Notes under the pieces: generated by a model
Seen by the model: only the letters and a program-made list of their open reading frames with translations
What the model was told of the DNA's origin: nothing
Database searches by the model: none
Translations under genes and position numbers: made by a program
Part shown: positions 37,021 to 53,768 of the stretch, one piece after another
Layout: each line of letters opens with the position of its first letter
How positions within the stretch are numbered: position 1 is the stretch's first letter
NCBI GenBank assembly: GCA_963717935.1
Contig: CAVQXP010000004.1
Coordinates: 1,600,001-1,664,000, forward strand
DNA from: Candidatus Eiseniibacteriota bacterium
GTDB taxonomy: Bacteria > Eisenbacteria > RBG-16-71-46
DNA length: 64,000 nucleotides
Direction: 5' to 3'

Positions 37021-37108
37021 GCCGGGGTGGCGGAACTGGCTAGACGCGGCGGACTTAAAATCCGCTGGGCTCACGCCCGTCCGGGTTCGACTCCCGGCCC
37101 CGGCACCA
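37021..37108 (+). tRNA. tRNA-Leu (anticodon TAA, reads UUA)
   Basis: GCCGGGG/CCCCGGC acceptor stem, GCGGA-CTTAAAA-TCCGC anticodon arm, long variable arm, GGTTCGACTCC T-arm, encoded CCA. Confidence 0.96.
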
Positions 37109-43418: not shown

Positions 43419-43561
43419 AGGGCCGCGAGCGCGCCGCGTGGCCGCGCGGCCCGTCCTGCGGACGGGGCCGTGCGGCGGGGAGTGCCCGACCAGACTCGCG
43501 TCCTGTCCCATCCCGGTCCTCCGGCCCCTGCCGGTCGGGCCGCGTCCCCGGGGGAGAACTC

Positions 43562-45678
43562 ATGAGCCGCACCGCCACGCTCCGGCGCGGAACCCGCGCC
43601 TTCGCCGCCTCTGCGGCACTCTTCGCCATCCTGGTCGCAGCCGTTCTCCTGCCGGACGCCGTCCGAGCGGACGAGGGCATGTGGACCTTCGACCACCTGC
43701 CGCTCCAGCGGCTGCAGGAGCGCTACGACTTCACGCCCACGCCCGAATGGGTCGAGCACGTCCAGAGGGCCTCGATCAACTTCGGCGGTGGTTCGGGTGC
43801 CTTCGTGTCGCCCGACGGGCTGGCGCTCACGAACCACCACGTGGCGCTCGGCCAGATGGCGAAGATGTCCTCGCCCGGGCACGACTACGTCCGCGACGGC
43901 TTCTTCGCGCGCACTCGCGCCGAGGAGCTGCCCTGCCCCGACCTCGAGCTCAAGGTGCTGATGACCAGCCAGGACGTGACCGCCCGCGTCCTGGGGGCGG
44001 TGGACTCGGCGGCCGTCGACCAGCGAGCAGAGCGCCCAGCGCAAGGTGGCCATGGCCCGCATCGAGCAGGAGGGGAGCCGCGACGGGCTCAGGGGCGAGG
44101 TGGTCGAGCTGTACCGCGGTGGCGAGTACTGGCTCTACCGCTACAAGACCTACAAGGACGTGCGCCTGGTGTGCGCGCCCGAGGAGCAGGCCGCCTTCTT
44201 CGGCGGCGACCTCGACAACTTCTGCTATCCCGCGCCACGACCTGGACTTCGCCTTCTTCCGCGTCTACGAGGACGGCCGGCCGGTCCGCCCGCAGCACTG
44301 GTTCCGCTGGAGCAAGGAGGGCGCGCGCGAGGGCGACCTCGTCTTCGTGGCGGGCAATCCGGGCACGACCAAGCGACTCTACACCGTGGCGCAACTCGAC
44401 CACGAGCGGAACCTGCGATCTGCCGCTGCGGATCCGCCTCAACGAGCAGCGCCTCGCGGCCTACCGGGCCTACGGGGCGCGCGGGCCCGAGCAGGAGCGC
44501 CAGGCCCGCGACCGGGTCCGCGGCCTCGAGAACAACCTCAAGCGCCAGCACGGTTTCCTGGAGGTGCTCTCGGACTCCGGCGGTGATGAAGGCGCGCCGC
44601 GACCGCCGAGGCGGCCCTGCGCCAGCGCATCGCCGCGAACCAGGCGGTCTCGGGGCTGGCGAGCCTCGCCTGGGAGCGCATCGCCGGCGCCATGAAGGAG
44701 ATGGGCCGCCGGCACACGGAGCACGTGGTGCGCGATCTCTCGCGTTCGAGCCGCCTGCTCGACATCGCGAACGGCATCGTGCGCTACACCACCGAGGTGG
44801 TGAAGCCCAACGAGCGAGCGCTTCAAGGAGTACCGCGACGCGAGGCTCGACTCCGAGCGCTTCCGGCTCTTCTCGCTCGCGCCCGTCTATCCCGAGATGG
44901 AGGAGATGACCCTCGGCGTGGTCCTGAGGCAGTGCCGCGGACGAGCTGGGCGCGGACGATCCGTTCGTCCAGGCTGGCGCTGGGCGGACGCACGCCGCAG
45001 GAGTGTCGCGCACACGCTGATCGCGGGCACGAAGCTGGGCGACCTCGCCGTGCGCACGGGCCCTGATCGAGGGCGGTGCGCAGGGCCGTGGCCGCCTCGA
45101 AGGATCCGCTCATCGTCTGGGCGCGTAGGCTCGACGCTCCCTACCGCGAGCTGCGTGCCTGGCACGAGGACCGCGTGCAAAGCGTCGAGACCCTGGACGG
45201 CGGGAGGATCGCGCGGGCGCGCTTCGCGCTCGAGGGCCGGGCGCTGCCCCCGGATGCCACCGGCTCGCTGCGGCTCTCCTACGGGAAGGCGGTCGGCTAC
45301 CCGCAACTGAGCACGCTGGTGCCCTGGGCCACCACGTTCCACGGCCTCTTCGACCGGGCGCTGAGCTTCGGTGGCCAGCCGCCGTTCGACCTGCCGGCGC
45401 GCGTCGCCGAGCACGAGAAGGACCTCGATCTGGCCACGCCGCTGAACTTCGTCAGCACCGACGACATCATCGGGGGGAACTCGGGCAGCGCGGTGCTGAA
45501 CCGCGCAGGCGAGTACGTGGGCCTGGTGTTCGACGGCAACGTGCAGGCCTACGCCTGGGACTACTACTACACCGAGGAGCAGGCGCGCTGCGTCTCGGTG
45601 CATTCGCGGGCGCTGATCGAGGTGCTGCGGAAGGTCTACGACCTGGGCGCGCTGGCGGACGAGGTGGAGGGGAAGTAG
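43562..45678 (+). pseudogene. S46-family dipeptidyl peptidase, multiply frameshifted (probably sequencing indels)
   Basis: ADEGMW, LTNHHV, DVRLV.APE, FFGGD.DNF, GNPGTT, PDATGSLRLSYG, DIIGGNSGS and GLVFDGN spread over all three frames. Confidence 0.85.
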
Positions 45679-45890
45679 CCCCCGGGCACGGCGCCAGAGG
45701 CGCGGCGGGGACCAGCGGAGGGCGAGCGTGTCCGTACTTAGCCGCCTTCCGCTGGTCCCCGCCGCGCCTCTGGCGCCAGGGCAGGTCGGAGGGCGAACGT
45801 GCGGACGATCAGCCGCCCTCCGGCTGGCCCCGCCTCCGTCGCGCCCTGTTGGAGTCCCGGACTCGCCCTGTGGCATAGTGCGGCCCGACC

Positions 45891-47386
45891 ATGACCTCCA
45901 CCCGCGCATCCGGTCTCCTGCTGCATCCGACGTCGCTCCCCGGACGCTTCGGCATCGGCGACCTCGGGCCCGAGGCGTCGCGCTGGGTGGACTTCCTCGC
46001 CGCGGCAGGGCAGAGGCTCTGGCAGGTCCTGCCGCTCGGTCCCACCGGATACGGCGACTCGCCCTACCAGAGCTTCTCGGCCTTCGCCGGGAACCCGTAC
46101 CTCGTGAGCCCCGAGCGGTTGTCCGAGGACGGTCTGCTGGGGCCCTCGGACCTCGCGGGAGTGCCAGCGTTCCCCGCCGACCGCGTGGACTACGGTCCGG
46201 TGATCGAGTGGAAGCTCGCGATCCTGGCGAAGGCCCACGCGCGCTTCTCGGCGGGCGCCGTCCCCGTGCTGCGCGCGGAGTACGATGGCTTCTGCCACGC
46301 ACAGGCGGACTGGCTCGAGGACTTCGCCCTCTTCATGGCGCTCAAGGAAGCGCACGGCGGTGCGACCTGGACCTCGTGGGAGAAGGGCCTGGTCGCGCGG
46401 GAGCCCGGGGCCCTCGCCGCCGCGCGCGAGCGCCTCGCGTCGGCGGTGGACTCGCAGCGTTTCCGCCAGTTCCTCTTCTTCCGCCAGTGGAGGGCGCTGC
46501 GCGCGCGCGCGCGCGCGGCAGGGCGTGCGCATCATCGGCGACCTGCCCATCTTCGTCGCGCACGACAGCGCCGACGTCTGGGCCCATCCGGAACTGTTCC
46601 AGCTCGACGCCCGGGGCGCGCCCGACGGTCGTGGCCGGCGTGCCGCCGGACTACTTCGCGAAGACCGGGCAGCTCTGGGGCAACCCGCTCTACCGCTGGG
46701 ACGACGCTGCGCGCGGGACGGCTACGCCTGGTGGGTGGAGCGGCTGCGCGCCACCTTCGAGGTCGTGGACGTCGTGCGGCTCGACCACTTCCGCGGCTTC
46801 GAGGCATGCTGGGAGGTGCCGGCGGGGCATGCCACGGCCGAGAACGGGCCGCTGGGTGAAGGGGCCGGGCGCGGCACTTCTTCGAGAGCGTGCGCGCCGC
46901 GCTGGGAGCGCTGCCCATCATCGCCGAGGACCTCGGCCTGATCACCCCCGAAGTCTTCGCGCTGCGCGACCGCTTCGATCTGCCGGGGATGAAGGTCCTG
47001 CAGTTCGCCTTCGAGAAGGACGCGCTGCACCCGTTCCTGCCGCACAACTTCCCGCACGAACTGCGTGGTCTACACCGGGACCCACGACAACGACACCACG
47101 CGCGGCTGGTACGCGAGCGCGCCCGAGAAGGAGCGCCACTTCGCGCGGTCCTATCTGGGTCGCGGAGGGCAGCGACATCACCTGGGACCTGATCCGCGCC
47201 GGCATGGCCTCGGTGGCCGACACGTTCATCGTGCCGCTGCAGGACGTCCTGGACCTGGGGCCCGAGGCGCGCATGAACCTGCCCGGCCGGCCGGGCGGCA
47301 ACTGGGGCTGGCGTTTCCGGCACGAGCAGGTGACGGACGCCGAGCGCGACCGGCTGCGGGGGCTCGTGGAGACCTACGGGCGATAG
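45891..47386 (+). pseudogene. malQ: 4-alpha-glucanotransferase (GH77), multiply frameshifted (probably sequencing indels)
   Basis: LLHPTSLP, WQVLPLGP, IIGDLPIFV, GVPPDYF..TGQLWGNP, RLDHFRGF, IAEDLG, YTGTHDNDT and RMNLPG in different frames. Confidence 0.88.
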
Positions 47387-47467
47387 CAGACCGCGGAGTT
47401 GGAGGCGCGTGGCCCTCTCCCGGTGTATATTCCCGGATTCCATGACCTTCCACCCGAGGCCCGCCGC

Positions 47468-49540
47468 ATGAATCCAGTCCCCGACTCGCCTGCCCTCCAG
47501 CCGCCCTCCGATCTCAACCCCCGGCACGAGCCGGTGCTCGACTTCCCCGACCGCGAGCTCGGAGAGATGACGCCGGCGGACTACCAGGCTCTGGGCTTCA
47601 TGTCGGGTCTCGAGGTGCACCAGCAGATCGTCACCCGCGGCAAGCTCTTCTGCCGCTGCCCGGCCGGCCGGCGCGTCACCCGCGTGGACGCCGAGGTGCT
47701 GCGTCACATGAGGCCCACGCTCTCCGAGTTGGGCGAGTACGACGGCTGCGCGCTCATGGAGTTCAAGACCCGCAAGGAGATCGTCTACCTGCTCGAGCGG
47801 GGCACGGTCTGCACCTACGAGATCGACGATACGCCGCCCTTCCCCATGGACGACGAGGCCGTGCGCGTGGCGCTCGAGATCGCGCTGCTCTTCGGCCTGA
47901 ACCTGGTCTCCGAGCTGCACGTGATGCGCAAGCAGTACCTGGATGGCTCGATCCCGACGGGCTTCCAGCGCACGGCGATGATGGGGCTCGCCGGGTGCAT
48001 CCCCTTCCGCGTGCCCGAGCTGGGCGTGGACCGCGAGCTGCGCATCCGGCAGTTCTCGCTCGAGGAGGACTCCTGCCGCGAGGTCTCGGACGTCGGGCAC
48101 CGCATCACCTTCCGCACCGACCGGCTGGGGATGCCGCTGATCGAGACGGTGACCGAGCCCGATCTCCTCACGCCCTACGAGGTCGCGGCGGGCGGGCGCC
48201 TCCTCTCCCGCGTGGCGCGGGCTTCGGGCAAGGTGCGTCGCGGGGCGGGCGCGGCGCGTCAGGACACGAACGTCTCGGTCGCGGGCGGCCGGCGCGTCGA
48301 GATCAAGGGCGTGGGCAACCACCGGCACCTGCCGCTGCTCACGCATAACGAGGCCTTCCGGCAGTTGAACCTGCTGCGGGTGCGGGCCGAGCTGCGCAGC
48401 CGCGGGGTGGAGGCGAAGGACCTGGCCGTCCCCGACGGGCCGCGGCCCTGGGAGCGCTCGCCACTCGTCGTGCACGCGGGCCCGATGCTCAGGCGCTGCG
48501 ACTACATGCCGCTGCGCGAGGCGCGCGAGCGCGGCGACACGGTGGTGGCGCTCGCGCTGCCCGGCTTCGGCGGCCTGCTGACGCGGGGCACCCAGCCGGG
48601 CGTGACCTTCGCGCGCGAGTTCGCCGACCGCGTGCGGGTGATCGCGTGCCTCACGGCGCGGCCCTTCATGATCCACTCCGACCTGTCGGACTACGGTCTG
48701 ACCCCGGCCGAATGGCGGTCGCTGCGGAAGAGCCTGCGCGCGGGGCCGTCGGACGCCGTCCTGGTGCTGTGGGGCACCGAGCAGGATGTGGAGACGGCGG
48801 TGCGCGAGGCGTTCCTGCGGGCGCGTGACGCGCTGGTCGGCGTGCCCGCGGAGACGCGGCAGTCCTTCCTGGACGGGACCACCGGATTCGAGCGCATCCT
48901 GCCCGGGGCCGATCGCATGTACCCCGACACCGATACACCCCCGAAGGCCATCCCGGAAGCGTGGGTGGCCGAGATCACCGCGCGCCTGTCCGAGCGCCCC
49001 TGGGAGCGGGAGAAGCGCTACCGCGCCCTCGGGTTCGCCGTGGTGCTGGCGGGCCGGCTGGCCGATGCCACCGAGACCGCGGATCTCTTCGACGCGCTCG
49101 CCGTGCCGGCAGGACCGGCTGCGGCGCGCGTGGCGGGCGCGCTGCTCAAACGTCCTGCGCGCTGGCGCCGCAGGCGGGCGGGCGAATCCCCGGCGAATCC
49201 GGAGCGGTTGAAGCCCCTGGTGGATGCCTTCGTGCAGGGCGAGTTACGGCCGGAGGGCTTCGAGCGCGCGCTCGAGCGCGCGCTGGCCGAGCCGGAACGG
49301 ACGGTGGCGGAGCTGCTCGACAGCGTGCGACCGCGAGCGGGCGATGTCGAAGAGGCCGGGCGGAGCATCGCCGCGGCGGTCGAGCGCTGCCGGGCGCTGC
49401 CGGACCGTCCGCGCGCGAGCCTGGTGCGCTGGGCCATGGGACTGGTGATGCGCGACCTGATCGGGCGCGTGGACCCGCGCGAGGTGCAGGCGCGGCTCGA
49501 GCGAGCGCTCGCGGCCCGGAAGGAGGGGGTGGGGCGATGA
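47468..49540 (+). CDS. gatE: Glu-tRNA(Gln) amidotransferase subunit E (archaeal type)
   Basis: GLEVHQQ..KLFCRCP, RPTLSELGEYD, MRKQYLDGS..TGFQRT, LEEDSCR, DRLGMPLIE, RQDTNVSV.GG.RVEIKGV, an insertion domain (IHSDL..YGL), LPGADRMYPDTD. Confidence 0.92.
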   Translation: MNPVPDSPALQPPSDLNPRHEPVLDFPDRELGEMTPADYQALGFMSGLEVHQQIVTRGKLFCRCPAGRRVTRVDAEVLRHMRPTLSELGEYDGCALMEFKTRKEIVYLLERGTVCTYEIDDTPPFPMDDEAVRVALEIALLFGLNLVSELHVMRKQYLDGSIPTGFQRTAMMGLAGCIPFRVPELGVDRELRIRQFSLEEDSCREVSDVGHRITFRTDRLGMPLIETVTEPDLLTPYEVAAGGRLLSRVARASGKVRRGAGAARQDTNVSVAGGRRVEIKGVGNHRHLPLLTHNEAFRQLNLLRVRAELRSRGVEAKDLAVPDGPRPWERSPLVVHAGPMLRRCDYMPLREARERGDTVVALALPGFGGLLTRGTQPGVTFAREFADRVRVIACLTARPFMIHSDLSDYGLTPAEWRSLRKSLRAGPSDAVLVLWGTEQDVETAVREAFLRARDALVGVPAETRQSFLDGTTGFERILPGADRMYPDTDTPPKAIPEAWVAEITARLSERPWEREKRYRALGFAVVLAGRLADATETADLFDALAVPAGPAAARVAGALLKRPARWRRRRAGESPANPERLKPLVDAFVQGELRPEGFERALERALAEPERTVAELLDSVRPRAGDVEEAGRSIAAAVERCRALPDRPRASLVRWAMGLVMRDLIGRVDPREVQARLERALAARKEGVGR

Positions 49541-50925
49541 CGGACGACCGCTACAAGGGCTACCGCGAGCCCTGCCTGTCGGTCCTGAAGCGGTTCGACG
49601 TGACCGTGTGGTGCGAGGTGCGGGCCCGCACCTCGCGCGGCGATTTCGAGGGCCTGCTGCTCCCGCGCTCGGAGACCGCCGACCCGCTCCACCTCGTGCT
49701 CAAGCTCACCACCGGCTACAACGTGGGGCTGCGCCACGACACGGTCACCGGGCTCGAGAAGATCGGCTACCGCGAGGCGCACTACCAGATCCCCGAGCGT
49801 GAGTTCCCGGTGAACCCGGCCATGCCCCGCGTCAAGCTCCTCGGCACGGGTGGTACGATCGCCTCGCGGCTCGACTACCGCACCGGGGCGGTCATCCCCG
49901 CCTTCAGCCCCGGCGAGCTCTACGGCTCGGTGCCCGAGCTCGCCGACATCTGCAACCTCGAGACGGAGAAGCTCTTCGGGGTGTTCTCGGAGAACATGGG
50001 GCCGGAGCAGTACATCGTGCTGGCGGAGCGGATCGGCGAGGCCATCCGAGACGGCTGGGACGGCGTCGTGGTCGGGCATGGCACCGACACCATGCACCAC
50101 ACGGCCGCGGCGCTCTCGTTCATGGTCCAGCGCTCGCCGGTGCCCGTCATCATGGTGGGCAGCCAGCGTTCCTCGGACCGGCCTTCCTCGGACGCGGCGC
50201 AGAACCTCATCAGCGCGACGTGGGCCGCCGCGCACGGGCCCATCGCCGAAGTCATGGTGTGCATGTTCGGCCCGACGTCTGACCGCTACAACCTGCTGCA
50301 CCGGGGGACGCGCGTGCGCAAGATGCACACCTCCTACCGCAGCACCTTCCGCACGCTGGGGGACATCCCGCTCGCGATGGTCGAGCGCGGGAAGCTCACG
50401 CCGCTCAAGGAGGACTGGGCACCCCGGCGCAAGGACCGGGACGTGACGGTGCAGGCGGTCTTCGAGGAGCGCGTCACGATCGTCTACTACTATCCGAACA
50501 TGAACCCCGACCTGATCGACGCGCTGGTGGAGAAGGGCTACAAGGGGATCGTCATCGCGGGCACGGGCCTGGGGCACGTGAACCGCAAGATCTATCCGGC
50601 CCTCGATCGCGCCCGCAGCGCCGGGGTGCTGATCTTCATGGCCGTGCAGACGCTCTGGGGCTTCGTGCAGATGTACGTCTACGAGACGGGGCGGGAGATC
50701 CTGGAGCTGGGGGTCACTCCGCTCGCGAACATGCTGCCCGAGGTGGCCTACATCAAGCTGGGCTGGGCGCTCGGCGTGCATCCCGACGATCCCGAGGCGG
50801 CGCGGCGGCTCATGGTCACGCCGATCGCGGGCGAGACCACCGAGCGCGAGCCGCACGACGGCTACCTGGTGTTCCAGGGCGGTGTTCCCGAGATCCAGGA
50901 GTTCCTGGGCAAGGTCTGGAAGTGA
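49537..50925 (+). CDS. gatD: Glu-tRNA(Gln) amidotransferase subunit D (archaeal type; asparaginase fold plus N-terminal domain)
   Basis: VLKLTTGYNVG, TGGTIASRLDYRTGAV, HGTDTM, GSQRSSDRPSSDA, RKMHTS.R, GTGLGHV; ATGA overlap with gatE. Confidence 0.94.
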   Translation: MTDDRYKGYREPCLSVLKRFDVTVWCEVRARTSRGDFEGLLLPRSETADPLHLVLKLTTGYNVGLRHDTVTGLEKIGYREAHYQIPEREFPVNPAMPRVKLLGTGGTIASRLDYRTGAVIPAFSPGELYGSVPELADICNLETEKLFGVFSENMGPEQYIVLAERIGEAIRDGWDGVVVGHGTDTMHHTAAALSFMVQRSPVPVIMVGSQRSSDRPSSDAAQNLISATWAAAHGPIAEVMVCMFGPTSDRYNLLHRGTRVRKMHTSYRSTFRTLGDIPLAMVERGKLTPLKEDWAPRRKDRDVTVQAVFEERVTIVYYYPNMNPDLIDALVEKGYKGIVIAGTGLGHVNRKIYPALDRARSAGVLIFMAVQTLWGFVQMYVYETGREILELGVTPLANMLPEVAYIKLGWALGVHPDDPEAARRLMVTPIAGETTEREPHDGYLVFQGGVPEIQEFLGKVWK

Positions 50926-50947
50926 ACCGACGAGGACGGATGACCGC

Positions 50948-52407
50948 ATGAAGCCGACGACGATGGCACCGACCGAAGCGAAACCGGCGCGTGGAGCGGG
51001 AGCGGTGGCTGCCGCGAGTCCCGGGTCCCCGAGCCTGCCCGCCTGTCTGCTCGAACGCCTGATCGGCCGCCCGGCCGCCACCTGGACGGTGGACGACCTG
51101 GTGACGCTCGCCGCCGGGCGCGGCGTGCGTCTCGTGAGCCTCATGCACGTGGGCGGCGACGGCTGGCTCAAGGTCCTGGACTTCGTGCCACGGAGCCGCG
51201 AGCACCTGCGCGACATCCTCTCCGGGGGCGAGCGCGCCGACGGCTCGAGCCTGTTCGCGGGGCTCGGGCCTCGAGGTGGGGGCCTCGGACATCCTGTTGC
51301 GGCCCCGTGTCGAGACCGCGTTCCTCGATCCGTTCGCGGTCCAGCCGACGCTGGTGCTGCTCTGCGGCCACGCGGGGCGCGACGGCGCGCCGCCTGCCGC
51401 AGTCACCCGACACCATCGTGCGCCAGGCCGGCGAGCGGCTGGTGCGCGAGCTGGGCGTCGAGTTGCACGCGCTGGGCGAGGTCGAGTACTTCCTCGGCCG
51501 GCGCGCGGGCGAGGAGGATGTCTACGGCGCGAACGACCGGGGCTACCACGCCACGTCGCCGTTCGTCTTCGGCGAGGCGCTGCGGCGCGAGGCCATGGCC
51601 CTGCTGGCCGAGATCGGCGTGCCCGGTCAAGTACGGGCACAGCGAGGTGGGCTACGTCCAGGCCACCGAGGCGGACGGGCTCATCTGGGAGCAGCACGAG
51701 ATCGAACTGGGACTCGCTCCGCTGCGCGGCCGCCGCCGACGCGGTGGTGCTCACCCAGTGGGTGCTGCGCAACCTCGCGCACCGGCAGGGCATGCGCTGC
51801 AGCTTCGATCCCATCCTGCGACGCGGCCACGCCGGCACGGGCCTGCACTTCCACTTCTCGCCGGTCCGCGACGGGGAGCACCTCGGCGGGCGCGGCGCGG
51901 ACGGGAGCGCTGAGCCCGCCGGCGCAGTGGCTCATCGCGCGGGCTGGTGCGCATGGGCGGGGCGCTCATGGCGTTCGGCAACCGCACCGAGGGCTCGCTC
52001 ATCCGCCTGACCCAGGCCAAGGAGGCGCCCAACGCCATCGTCTGGGGCGAGTTCGACCGCAGCGCGCTGGTGCGGCTGCCGATCGTGGCGCGCACCGAGG
52101 ACGGCCGGCCGGTGAGCCCGCCGACCATCGAGTTCCGGCTGCCCGACGGCTCGGCCCACCCGCACCTGCTGCTCGCGGGCGTGGCGCAGGTGATGGTCGA
52201 GGCGACGGGCGAGCGCGGACGTCGAGGCGCTGCTCGAGCGCACGTCGGTGACGGCGCTCAAGCGCGGAGCGGGGACGGTCGACACCCGTGCCGACACGGT
52301 TCCTCGAGGTGGCGGAGGCGCTGACGGCCAGCCGCGCCGCGCTCGAAGCGGGCGGGGTCTTCCCGCCGGTGCTCCTCGACCGGCTGATCGAGCGCCTGCG
52401 GGCGTAG
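50948..52407 (+). pseudogene. glnA: Glutamine synthetase (type I-like), multiply frameshifted (probably sequencing indels)
   Basis: DGSS, GEVEYF, HSEVG, QHEIE, GTGLHFHFS, RL...EAP...WG..DRSALVRLP and IEFRLPD across frames. Confidence 0.8.
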
Positions 52408-52416
52408 CGCGCCCGC

Positions 52417-53768
52417 TCAGGCGGTGGTCGCCAGCGCCTCGTCGATGGTCGTGCAGTCCACCAGCCCGCTGCAGCCGTAGAGCACGGGCAGCAGCTTCTC
52501 CGGCGGATGATGGCGCCGCAGCTCGGCGACGAGATCGGTCCCCGCGCGGTAGCACGGCAGGTACATGCGCCCCATCAGCGGGTGCCTGCCCCAGGCGCCG
52601 GCGAACTTCTTCGCCCGCTCCTCGGAGACCAGGAAGTCGCGCCGCAGCACCGGCGCCACGTCCGCCTCGGCCGCGCGCTCCTGCCAGGTGAGGTACGAGG
52701 CCTGGTTCTTGGCGTCGTCCTGCAGCAGCGCCAGCAGCAGCCCGATCTTCAGGTCGTCGTCGGGGATCTGGTCCAGCTCGGTCACGCCGTGAGCGATGAG
52801 GATGGCGTTGTTGGCGATGCCCTCGAAGAGCGTGGCCGCGCGGGTGTTCATGGTGAGCACCGAGGCCTCGAAGCCCACCTGGCCGCGCCAGTAGAGGTCC
52901 TGCAGGAAGGCGAAGGTGGTGACGTGGCCGGGCACGACCTCGTGCGAGACGAGCTGCTCGAACTCCGGCACCGTGATCTGGAGCGACGCGTTGATCTCGT
53001 AGGAGGCCTCGTACTCGGGCCGGCCGCCGGGACGGCGCCTGCGGCCGAGGTAGTTCATCGAACCCGAGAACCAGGCGTCCTTGATGGGCAGGAACTCGAT
53101 GTTGTCCATGGGCACGTCGCCGAGTTCGGCTCGGCAGGAACGGGCGCAGGTTGCGCTCGGCCAGCGCGCGATAGTGGGCGATGTAGGCGCCGCCCACGGA
53201 GCGCACGCAGGCCATCGGGCACGTAGCGCGTGCCGCGCCAGGCGTCCACCGCCGCGAGCAGGTCGGCGTCGCTCGCCGACGGGTGGCCCGCGCGCGCCAG
53301 CAGTTCCTGCACCTGGCGGCGCTTCGTCGCCGGGTCCGAGGGCGAGGGCGGCTGGCCGGTCGAGGCCAGCACGCAGCGCTCGTAGGGGACGGGCTCACCC
53401 TTGCCGAGGATCTCCAGCCCCAGGTCCAGCATGACCTCGAAGCACAGGGCGAGTCCCGCGACGTAACGGCCGCGCAGGCCGCTCATGCTCTTCGCCTCCG
53501 TGCCGAGGGCGGCGATGGCGCCGCGCACGTCCACCGCGGCGAGGTAGGTCTCGACGGCGGCGCGGTCGGGCTCCTTCGCGGACACCCCGCCGCTCTCGCG
53601 CACGCGCGCGGCCGCCGGGTGCGTGTAGGCGGGTGGCAAGGGGGCGTCGGAGAACCAGGAGTCGGCGATGAAGCGCCCGAGGCCGGAGGGGTTCATGACG
53701 TCGCCGCCCCAGAGGGTGTCGATGCCGAGGACGGCGTTGGCGACGTGCTCGTCGAAGCGCTGGCTCAT
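52417..53768 (-). pseudogene. Zincin-like protein with DUF885-type HExxPGH motif, frameshifted near 53130-53220
   Basis: GAGGAGG SD at start; ORFs 53055..53768 and 52417..53115 join into one protein; HEVVPGH...FEG motif. Confidence 0.65.

Follow-up and report, generated by a model that had tools for sequence, protein, structure and literature searches.

What would an archaeal-type glutamyl-tRNA(Gln) amidotransferase do in a bacterium that already encodes a glutaminyl-tRNA synthetase (GlnRS)? The question is raised by two adjacent genes, gatE and gatD, in a stretch of 64,000 nucleotides (the window; G000:C4:1600001-1664000) lying within a 2.14 Mb contig of a Candidatus Eiseniibacteriota genome. 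This genome of 3.02 Mb is 93% complete, has a GC content of about 0.71 and carries a 16S rRNA of bacterial type (1598.8 bits). GatDE is described in PMC2811023 as occurring exclusively in archaea, where it acts only on Glu-tRNA(Gln). Reviews up to 2022 further state that this archaea-only enzyme co-evolved with archaeal tRNA(Gln), explaining why GlnRS did not enter the archaea (PMC9499178, PMC2811023). The archaea-only rule does not hold here: the host is bacterial by its 16S rRNA, and the best 80 of at least 575 related loci all come from bacterial metagenome-assembled genomes (MAGs).

The gatE-gatD gene pair and its family

The gatE gene (47468..49540, forward strand) is an uninterrupted open reading frame (ORF) encoding 690 amino acids from its ATG. 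An alternative start, TTG at 47399, would give 713 residues; homologues share the methionine of the 47468 start in an alignment of gatE with five bacterial homologues, which runs end to end and is free of out-of-frame patches. The NCBIfam equivalog TIGR00134 (gatE_arch) matches GatE with 391.1 bits against a cut-off of 319.55, and PRK04028 with 451.3 bits, narrowly below its cut-off of 456, over positions 4-625 of 630. GatB family models do not exceed 133 bits against cut-offs of at least 315. Structural alignments point the same way, with 300.8 bits for P. abyssi GatE (1zq1_C, query residues 38-680) and 269.2 bits for the M. thermautotrophicus protein (2D6F); GatB chains reach only 34-86 bits.

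The protein is made up of a cradle domain, an inserted AspRS-like domain and a putative helical or tail region. The Pfam GatB_N match (E 6.9e-40, 137.4 bits) forms a single stretch over residues 69-523 of the 713-residue ORF, yet the profile is only 277 positions long; the match therefore leaves the footprint of, and the room for, an inserted domain. A GAD match at residues 374-467 is weak (21.9 bits, below the cut-off of 23.4). The GAD-type region nevertheless aligns with 1zq1_C, and PF02938 is present in many close GatE homologues. GatE is thus predicted to contain the AspRS-like (GAD) insertion that GatB lacks, as the earlier note had proposed from its motifs. The tail gives no Pfam match at E <= 1e-3; it aligns as far as residue 626 of the 1zq1_C chain, and PF02637 (tail) is recognized in some homologues.

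Conservation was counted over 33 presumed-archaeal and 42 presumed-bacterial GatE sequences together with three GatB. Fifty-seven GatE positions are conserved with archaeal GatE, 28 of them specific to GatE and 29 (at conservation of at least 94%) also identical in the three GatB. The latter include E49, H51, R154, K155, E199, E200, N268, E278 and K280, cradle residues that we presume to belong to the catalytic core. Only three positions are fixed differently between the presumed-archaeal and presumed-bacterial sets. A positively charged stretch, KVRRG, is aligned with KKVKRG of P. abyssi.

The second gene, gatD (49537..50925, forward strand), is likewise uninterrupted and encodes a predicted asparaginase-like amidase subunit of 462 amino acids that would supply ammonia. 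The two genes are linked by a coupling signal at 49520..49540 on the same strand: AAGGAGG (49520-49526) stands 10 nt upstream of the gatD start, whose ATG overlaps the gatE TGA as ATGA (49537-49540). The earlier note's description of two translationally coupled and unbroken ORFs therefore stands, each gene being read in a single frame.

Pfam recognizes GatD_N (37.7 bits), Asparaginase (190.5 bits) and Asparaginase_C (102.3 bits) in GatD. TIGR02153 (gatD_arch) scores 485.9 bits against a cut-off of 324 and PRK04183 479 bits against 310; the asparaginase family models of NCBIfam remain far under their own cut-offs. The archaeal GatD chains align with 384 bits (1zq1_A) and 371.4 bits (2D6F), the best plain asparaginase structure with 134 bits. 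GTGGTIASR and HGTDTM, as well as VRKMHTS, are identical to P. abyssi 1zq1_A, and these stretches hold what we take to be the catalytic Thr, Thr-Asp and Lys of asparaginase type. Both proteins group with GatE and GatD, apart from GatB and plain asparaginases, which was the family test that the earlier note had proposed.

Among the 80 related loci, gatD follows gatE in 67. Twelve of the 13 loci in which gatD was not found after gatE are cut by a contig end, and one (L071) has flanking sequence and no gatD. The two subunits, encoded together, are predicted to form a single enzyme. Compared with a same-genus locus (L026), the ratio of non-synonymous to synonymous substitution (dN/dS) is 0.169 for gatE (dS 0.32) and 0.044 for gatD (dS 0.30), which indicates purifying selection on both genes. 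Across phyla, GatD identity is 65-98%. As far as sequence comparison reaches, the two genes are confirmed as encoding a genuine GatDE belonging to a bacterial GatDE clade.

Compared with archaeal GatDE (P. abyssi 1ZQ1; M. thermautotrophicus with tRNA(Gln), 2D6F), the pair has the same two subunits and domain order, aligns over its full length and shares the adjacency of the two genes. It differs in the order gatE then gatD with ATGA coupling, in about 25-30 extra N-terminal residues of GatD relative to the solved archaeal chains and in its position in a separate bacterial clade. GatCAB, a bacterial enzyme of comparable function (GatB: 3KFU, 3H0L, 2DF4), shares with it the cradle (GatB_N) domain and putative tail region common to GatB and GatE; it lacks the domain inserted in GatE, and its ammonia donor is the amidase GatA with GatC in place of an asparaginase-like GatD.

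Distribution and origin of bacterial GatDE

A word-indexed protein search returned 8000 matches per subunit. The best 120 are 61-92% identical for GatE and, excluding the window's own protein at 100%, 81-98% identical for GatD; where databases give a name, it identifies GatE or GatD in MAGs of Candidatus Eisenbacteria or Gemmatimonadota. When one genome was scanned for each species, at least 599 stretches matched, and at least 575 of them were confirmed as relatives. The best 80 of these belong to more than 10 phyla, the closest among them being an Eisenbacteria locus (OY970178.1, 91%). Their labels include Eisenbacteria, Gemmatimonadota, Acidobacteriota, Myxococcota, Planctomycetota, Krumholzibacteriota, Ignavibacteriota/Bacteroidota, Kapaibacteria, Aminicenantes, Zixibacteria, Fibrobacteraceae, CSSED10-310 and Rhodothermaceae. 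The window locus is thus unremarkable within a large group of bacterial GatDE that databases already annotate.

Within the host phylum, at least 26 of 206 genomes exceed the gatE_arch cut-off. This is a lower bound, as one genome (G137) carries gatD at a contig end with gatE undetected; the counts include an unpublished genome (G073) negative for both GatE and GlnRS, which enters no other result. Two longer relatives of GatE depart from the usual architecture: P0081 (969 amino acids) also has GatD_N and asparaginase domains, so that its length may reflect fusion of GatE with GatD or else read-through, and P0049 (916 amino acids) has an extra N-terminal PF12840 and PF25212.

Besides gatD, no neighbor is conserved across phyla in the 80 related loci. 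Those of individual loci include DUF1223, a kinase, a methyltransferase, an M42 peptidase, GcvH, an MFS protein and H+-PPase. None of the 80 has a tRNA-Gln gene beside the operon, and five have some tRNA gene there.

An exhaustive search yielded 2735 relatives at E <= 1e-3, a number that falls to 581 if E <= 1e-30 is required. In a FastTree phylogeny of 137 rows, a 77-row clade (support 100) stands apart from all named bacterial rows, and the names recovered within it are Heimdallarchaeota, Thorarchaeota and Thermoprotei. We relied on an IQ-TREE analysis of 78 rows (LG+G4, outgroup of three bacterial GatB) together with the approximately unbiased (AU) test; a quick first tree, a poor optimum that another search bettered by 176.6 log-likelihood units, was set aside. 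The bootstrap of the IQ-TREE analysis stopped short of full convergence, and the amino-acid composition of the alignment is heterogeneous. The 42 rows treated as bacterial form one clade (UFBoot 100 / SH-aLRT 100), the eight basal ones (P0260, P0264, P0249, P0253, P0251, P0257, P0266 and P0267) being bacterial by assumption. This clade is sister to a Heimdallarchaeota-labelled row, P0285 (100/98), with which it joins Thorarchaeota-labelled rows in a weakly supported group (82/34).

If the 33 archaeal rows are constrained to form one group, the log-likelihood drops by only 6.24 units (p-AU 0.186), so two histories remain compatible with the data: bacterial GatE may derive by transfer from an Asgard-like donor, or it may stand as a bacterial sister lineage of archaeal GatE as a whole. 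Within the bacterial clade, the window GatE falls in a 12-row group (100/100) mixing five phylum labels, which argues for spread between bacterial phyla.

The earlier note had offered an old inter-domain transfer or an unrecognized bacterial clade. This either-or reading holds, the pair falling within one large bacterial clade with a Heimdallarchaeota-labelled row as its closest named archaeal relative; "unrecognized" applies to papers only. Bacterial GatDE is already labelled as such by NCBI and JGI, automated annotations whose existence the earlier note had suspected, and full-text searches, whose coverage largely excludes subscription journals, found no published work on it.

The role of GatDE beside the direct synthetases

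The survey of tRNA-charging genes that the earlier note had recommended gives an inventory of the host. GlnRS is present (635 bits with its neighbors, above the cut-off) and AsnRS is intact. Two GluRS loci, both bacterial in type, were found. One of them comes immediately after glnS, with tRNA-Gln(CUG) and tRNA-Glu(CUC) next in line; this cluster (G000:C4:1693226-1696932) lies about 29 kb past the end of the window and is kept in the same-genus genome G206 (L115). The side-by-side arrangement of glnS and gltX also occurs in G209 and in genomes of family f6. The tRNA-Glu(CUC) gene (G000:C4:1696857-1696932) has G1-U72 atop its acceptor stem, either a real feature or a base error. Both tRNA-Gln genes (UUG and CUG) have U1-A72, and A1-U72 occurs only in tRNA-Trp.

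A gatCAB operon (G000:C4:1961286-1964504) has an intact gatC, with gatA and gatB read across several frames. These breaks are attributed to assembly indels because they extend the pattern seen around gatE-gatD (see below) and because GatB of G206 is intact in one frame (489 bits). The host almost certainly has GatCAB beside GlnRS.

The other carriers tested vary in their equipment. All five have AsnRS: G206 has GatB and GlnRS, G207 and G208 (from other phyla) have GatB and no GlnRS, and G209 and G210 have GlnRS and no GatB. In the host phylum, GlnRS accompanies 23 of the 26 GatE-positive genomes versus 91 of the 180 GatE-negative ones; the cross-tabulation was made by hand, over related genomes that are non-independent samples. 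GatDE is not a replacement for a missing GlnRS.

We infer the chemistry, substrate and physiological role of bacterial GatDE from this comparative evidence. The simplest reading is that the pair performs the canonical reaction, because the catalytic core is kept, only three positions are fixed differently, selection is purifying and the subunits are linked. It would not be the sole route and would be accessory, since the host has GlnRS and almost certainly GatCAB. On balance we think it probable, judging from sequence, that GatDE amidates Glu-tRNA(Gln) in support of GlnRS, be it as a parallel pathway, a back-up or a means of clean-up. If the archaeal enzyme is taken as a guide, GatD would hydrolyze the amide of glutamine or asparagine and pass the ammonia to GatE, which, with ATP, would activate the side-chain carboxyl of the glutamate attached to tRNA(Gln) to yield Gln-tRNA(Gln). 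The misacylated substrate would come from one of the two bacterial-type GluRS acting on a U1-A72 tRNA. In a variant of this reading, GatDE might serve to remove mischarged Glu-tRNA(Gln).

Retention of an amidotransferase beside direct synthetases has a counterpart: according to PMC4206432, Deinococcus, Thermus and Bdellovibrio retain GatCAB beside GlnRS and AsnRS, a retention linked to asparagine. The likeness to the host is an amidotransferase maintained despite direct synthetases, with a role beyond that of sole charging route; the difference is that these bacteria use GatCAB and the host has GatDE.

The setting differs from that of archaeal GatDE, the bacterial host having GlnRS, AsnRS, GluRS of bacterial type and gatCAB. 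Several observations weigh against canonical amidation. Both tRNA-Gln genes of the host lack the archaeal identity pair A1-U72, and no archaeal-type GluRS partner was seen in the host or in the same-genus genome, whose GluRS is of bacterial type (TIGR00464, 525 bits) and in which gltX_arch gives only a sub-threshold cross-match of GlnRS. GatDE is patchy in the phylum, and a genome of the same genus that is 96% complete (G136) is without it, so that the pair looks dispensable and accessory. G209 and G210 keep GatDE with GlnRS and AsnRS and without GatB. In family f6, an identical complement (a single GluRS, GlnRS and no GatB-type match) is seen in the genomes with GatDE (G017, G018) and in those lacking it (G015, G016, G019), and no extra GluRS was seen accompanying GatDE; if the single GluRS of this type discriminates against tRNA(Gln), GatDE would have no canonical substrate there.

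The position of synthetase genes around the operon bears on this question. In 7 of the 80 loci a glnS gene (660-743 bits) is found at most 6 kb away from gatE, in differing arrangements, when about 0.2 loci would be expected by chance according to our estimate, and bacterial gltX is also found upstream in L047 and L049. This linkage above chance ties the GatDE module to tRNA(Gln) charging. As a separate observation, the gene directly upstream of gatE in a Planctomycetota-labelled MAG (L059:3626-5968) encodes a fusion of GlnRS with a YqeY/GatB-tail domain (PRK14703, 1059 bits).

A more specific account, which we put forward tentatively and hold possible rather than probable, is that bacterial GatDE is a mobile accessory module working together with GlnRS and is no redundant third route. 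Such a module might clear or use the Glu-tRNA(Gln) made by a leaky GluRS; it might supply Gln-tRNA(Gln) when free glutamine is low, through asparagine or a dedicated enzyme of the glutamine synthetase (GS) family; or it might do so under inhibition of GlnRS. Such a role would account for four observations: why GatDE tracks GlnRS, why glnS, gltX or GS-family genes appear as neighbors in several lineages, why conservation is strong and why the pair comes and goes among relatives.

The main rival to amidation of Glu-tRNA(Gln) supposes that the bacterial clade has retained GatDE chemistry and switched job, acting on a different tRNA-bound substrate (Asp-tRNA(Asn), for example) or serving a process outside translation. 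The genomes with GlnRS and no GatB (G209 and G210, which also have AsnRS, and family f6), the patchy, accessory distribution and the U1-A72 pair of tRNA-Gln would all suit such a change. We nevertheless regard it as unlikely: GatE core positions are conserved with only the three fixed differences between clades, the repeated glnS and gltX linkage points to tRNA(Gln), and AsnRS is present in the host and in all five carriers tested. The alignment of KVRRG with KKVKRG argues in the same direction, the correspondence of this stretch to the loop described in PMC2811023 being our own reading.

That GatDE is instead the main or even the sole route to Gln-tRNA(Gln) in the host, as in archaea, might be read from the gatA and gatB genes broken over several frames in the source assembly and from the two carriers of other phyla that lack GlnRS. 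This is very improbable given the host's own GlnRS, the presence of GatB in those two carriers and its intact form in G206, and breaks that follow a genome-wide pattern of single-base indels absent from independent contigs. A decaying relic without function, which the patchiness among close relatives could suggest, is scarcely credible in view of intact frames, a dN/dS of 0.04-0.17, the high identity of GatD across phyla and the conserved core residues.

Integrity of the locus, its neighbors and what it implies

A plot of third-codon-position GC and a seven-state segmentation find a single constant frame through gatE and another through gatD. The GC content of the pair is 0.71-0.74 versus 0.68-0.75 across the window, in agreement with the neighbor-like composition claimed by the earlier note, and its third-position GC is in line with the local one. 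The flanking genes, by the same two analyses, change frame every 100-400 nt: a gene for an S46 peptidase (43.6-45.7 kb), a GH77 malQ (45.9-47.4 kb) and a GS-family gene (50.9-52.4 kb) are frame-broken, the breaks falling at 43560-47390 and 50950-52400. Over contig C4 as a whole, frame switches within one strand number 701, and there are 83 clusters with at least three of them.

Logan contigs from four other public runs were aligned to 43500-52500; no run contains more than 0.21 of the sampled words. These contigs omit single bases at 44024, 44229, 44416, 44579, 44603, 44817, 44935, 44972, 45004, 46845, 46876 and 47054, twelve places that coincide with frame-switch points, and at 57 further places. 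Gaps number 11 over the S46 gene (1.8 kb) and 14 and 8 in two contigs over a GS-like gene, versus 0-2 over each of the gatE and gatD pieces. Because the omitted bases fall at the switch points, the flanking breaks look like consensus indels of the source assembly, and their interpretation as pseudogenes was rejected. As for the clean 3.4 kb between broken clusters, our guess is high conservation among co-occurring strains.

Independent contigs also bridge the junctions. Run X2 spans malQ/gatE (47258-48091) and gatE/gatD (48133-49959), and both X18 (49858-52409) and X2 (50742-52407) span the border of gatD with the GS-like gene. The malQ-gatE-gatD-GS-like order is thus repeated in independent contigs and is found in same-genus genomes, which excludes a chimeric insert, the outcome against which the earlier note had advised mapping the junctions. 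Run X18 is an RNA library, and its contigs over the two gat genes and the GS-like gene are 90-95% alike, although contigs cannot show transcription. An artefact, whether archaeal DNA wrongly joined to the bacterial contig or contamination during binning, was a concern raised only by the broken flanks around a clean gatDE; no support for it was found, and it can be all but dismissed given the 2.14 Mb contig, the local GC and third-position GC, the bridging contigs, the same-genus gene order and the bacterial nearest relatives.

The GS-family gene (50948..52400, forward strand, with approximate ends) begins about 22 nt 3' of gatD and is broken several times. Pfam gives no match on the window's own ORFs because of these breaks. 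An intact orthologue (L026:9481-10923) matches Gln-synt_C with 119 bits and remains far under every NCBIfam GS cut-off. The gatD-GS order recurs in L026, L117, L118 and L119, one X18 contig covers gatD together with the GS-like gene, and in L064 a genuine GS gene is located upstream of gatE. In the host genus, gatE-gatD probably forms an operon with this divergent GS-family gene. A scan of 47200-52700 for promoters and terminators found 0 and 0 sites.

Other features of the region are more incidental. In the same-genus locus L026, malQ and gatE are separated by 3.7 kb (L026:2273-5940), compared with 43 nt in the window, and this interval holds an FG-GAP repeat gene split by an IS481-type transposase. 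Downstream of the GS-like gene, on the reverse strand (52417-53768), the window has two frame-consistent ORFs of 232 and 237 amino acids with no Pfam match at E <= 1e-3. The only gathering-level Rfam match in the window is a tRNA-Leu(UAA) at 37021-37108. Elsewhere in the genome, ARAGORN calls two tRNA-SeC genes (G000:C2:66885-66982 and C4:1910457-1910554) and several odd or over-long tRNAs (Trp 88 nt, Arg 97 nt, Ala 86 nt); false calls are probably among them.

The window's own contribution is the link with a GS-family gene in the host genus; otherwise it provides one more clean example, and the worthwhile question concerns the role of the whole bacterial GatDE clade rather than that of a single locus. 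A related question is what purpose a tRNA-dependent amidotransferase serves where a direct synthetase already exists. A large, conserved bacterial GatDE clade occurring beside GlnRS and a U1-A72 tRNA(Gln) suggests that GatDE can work, or was re-tuned to do so, in bacterial translation. Should bacterial GatDE prove to be an accessory module operating with GlnRS, the domain barrier attributed to GatDE and tRNA(Gln) would have been crossed once, and the enzyme would then have spread over more than 10 bacterial phyla.

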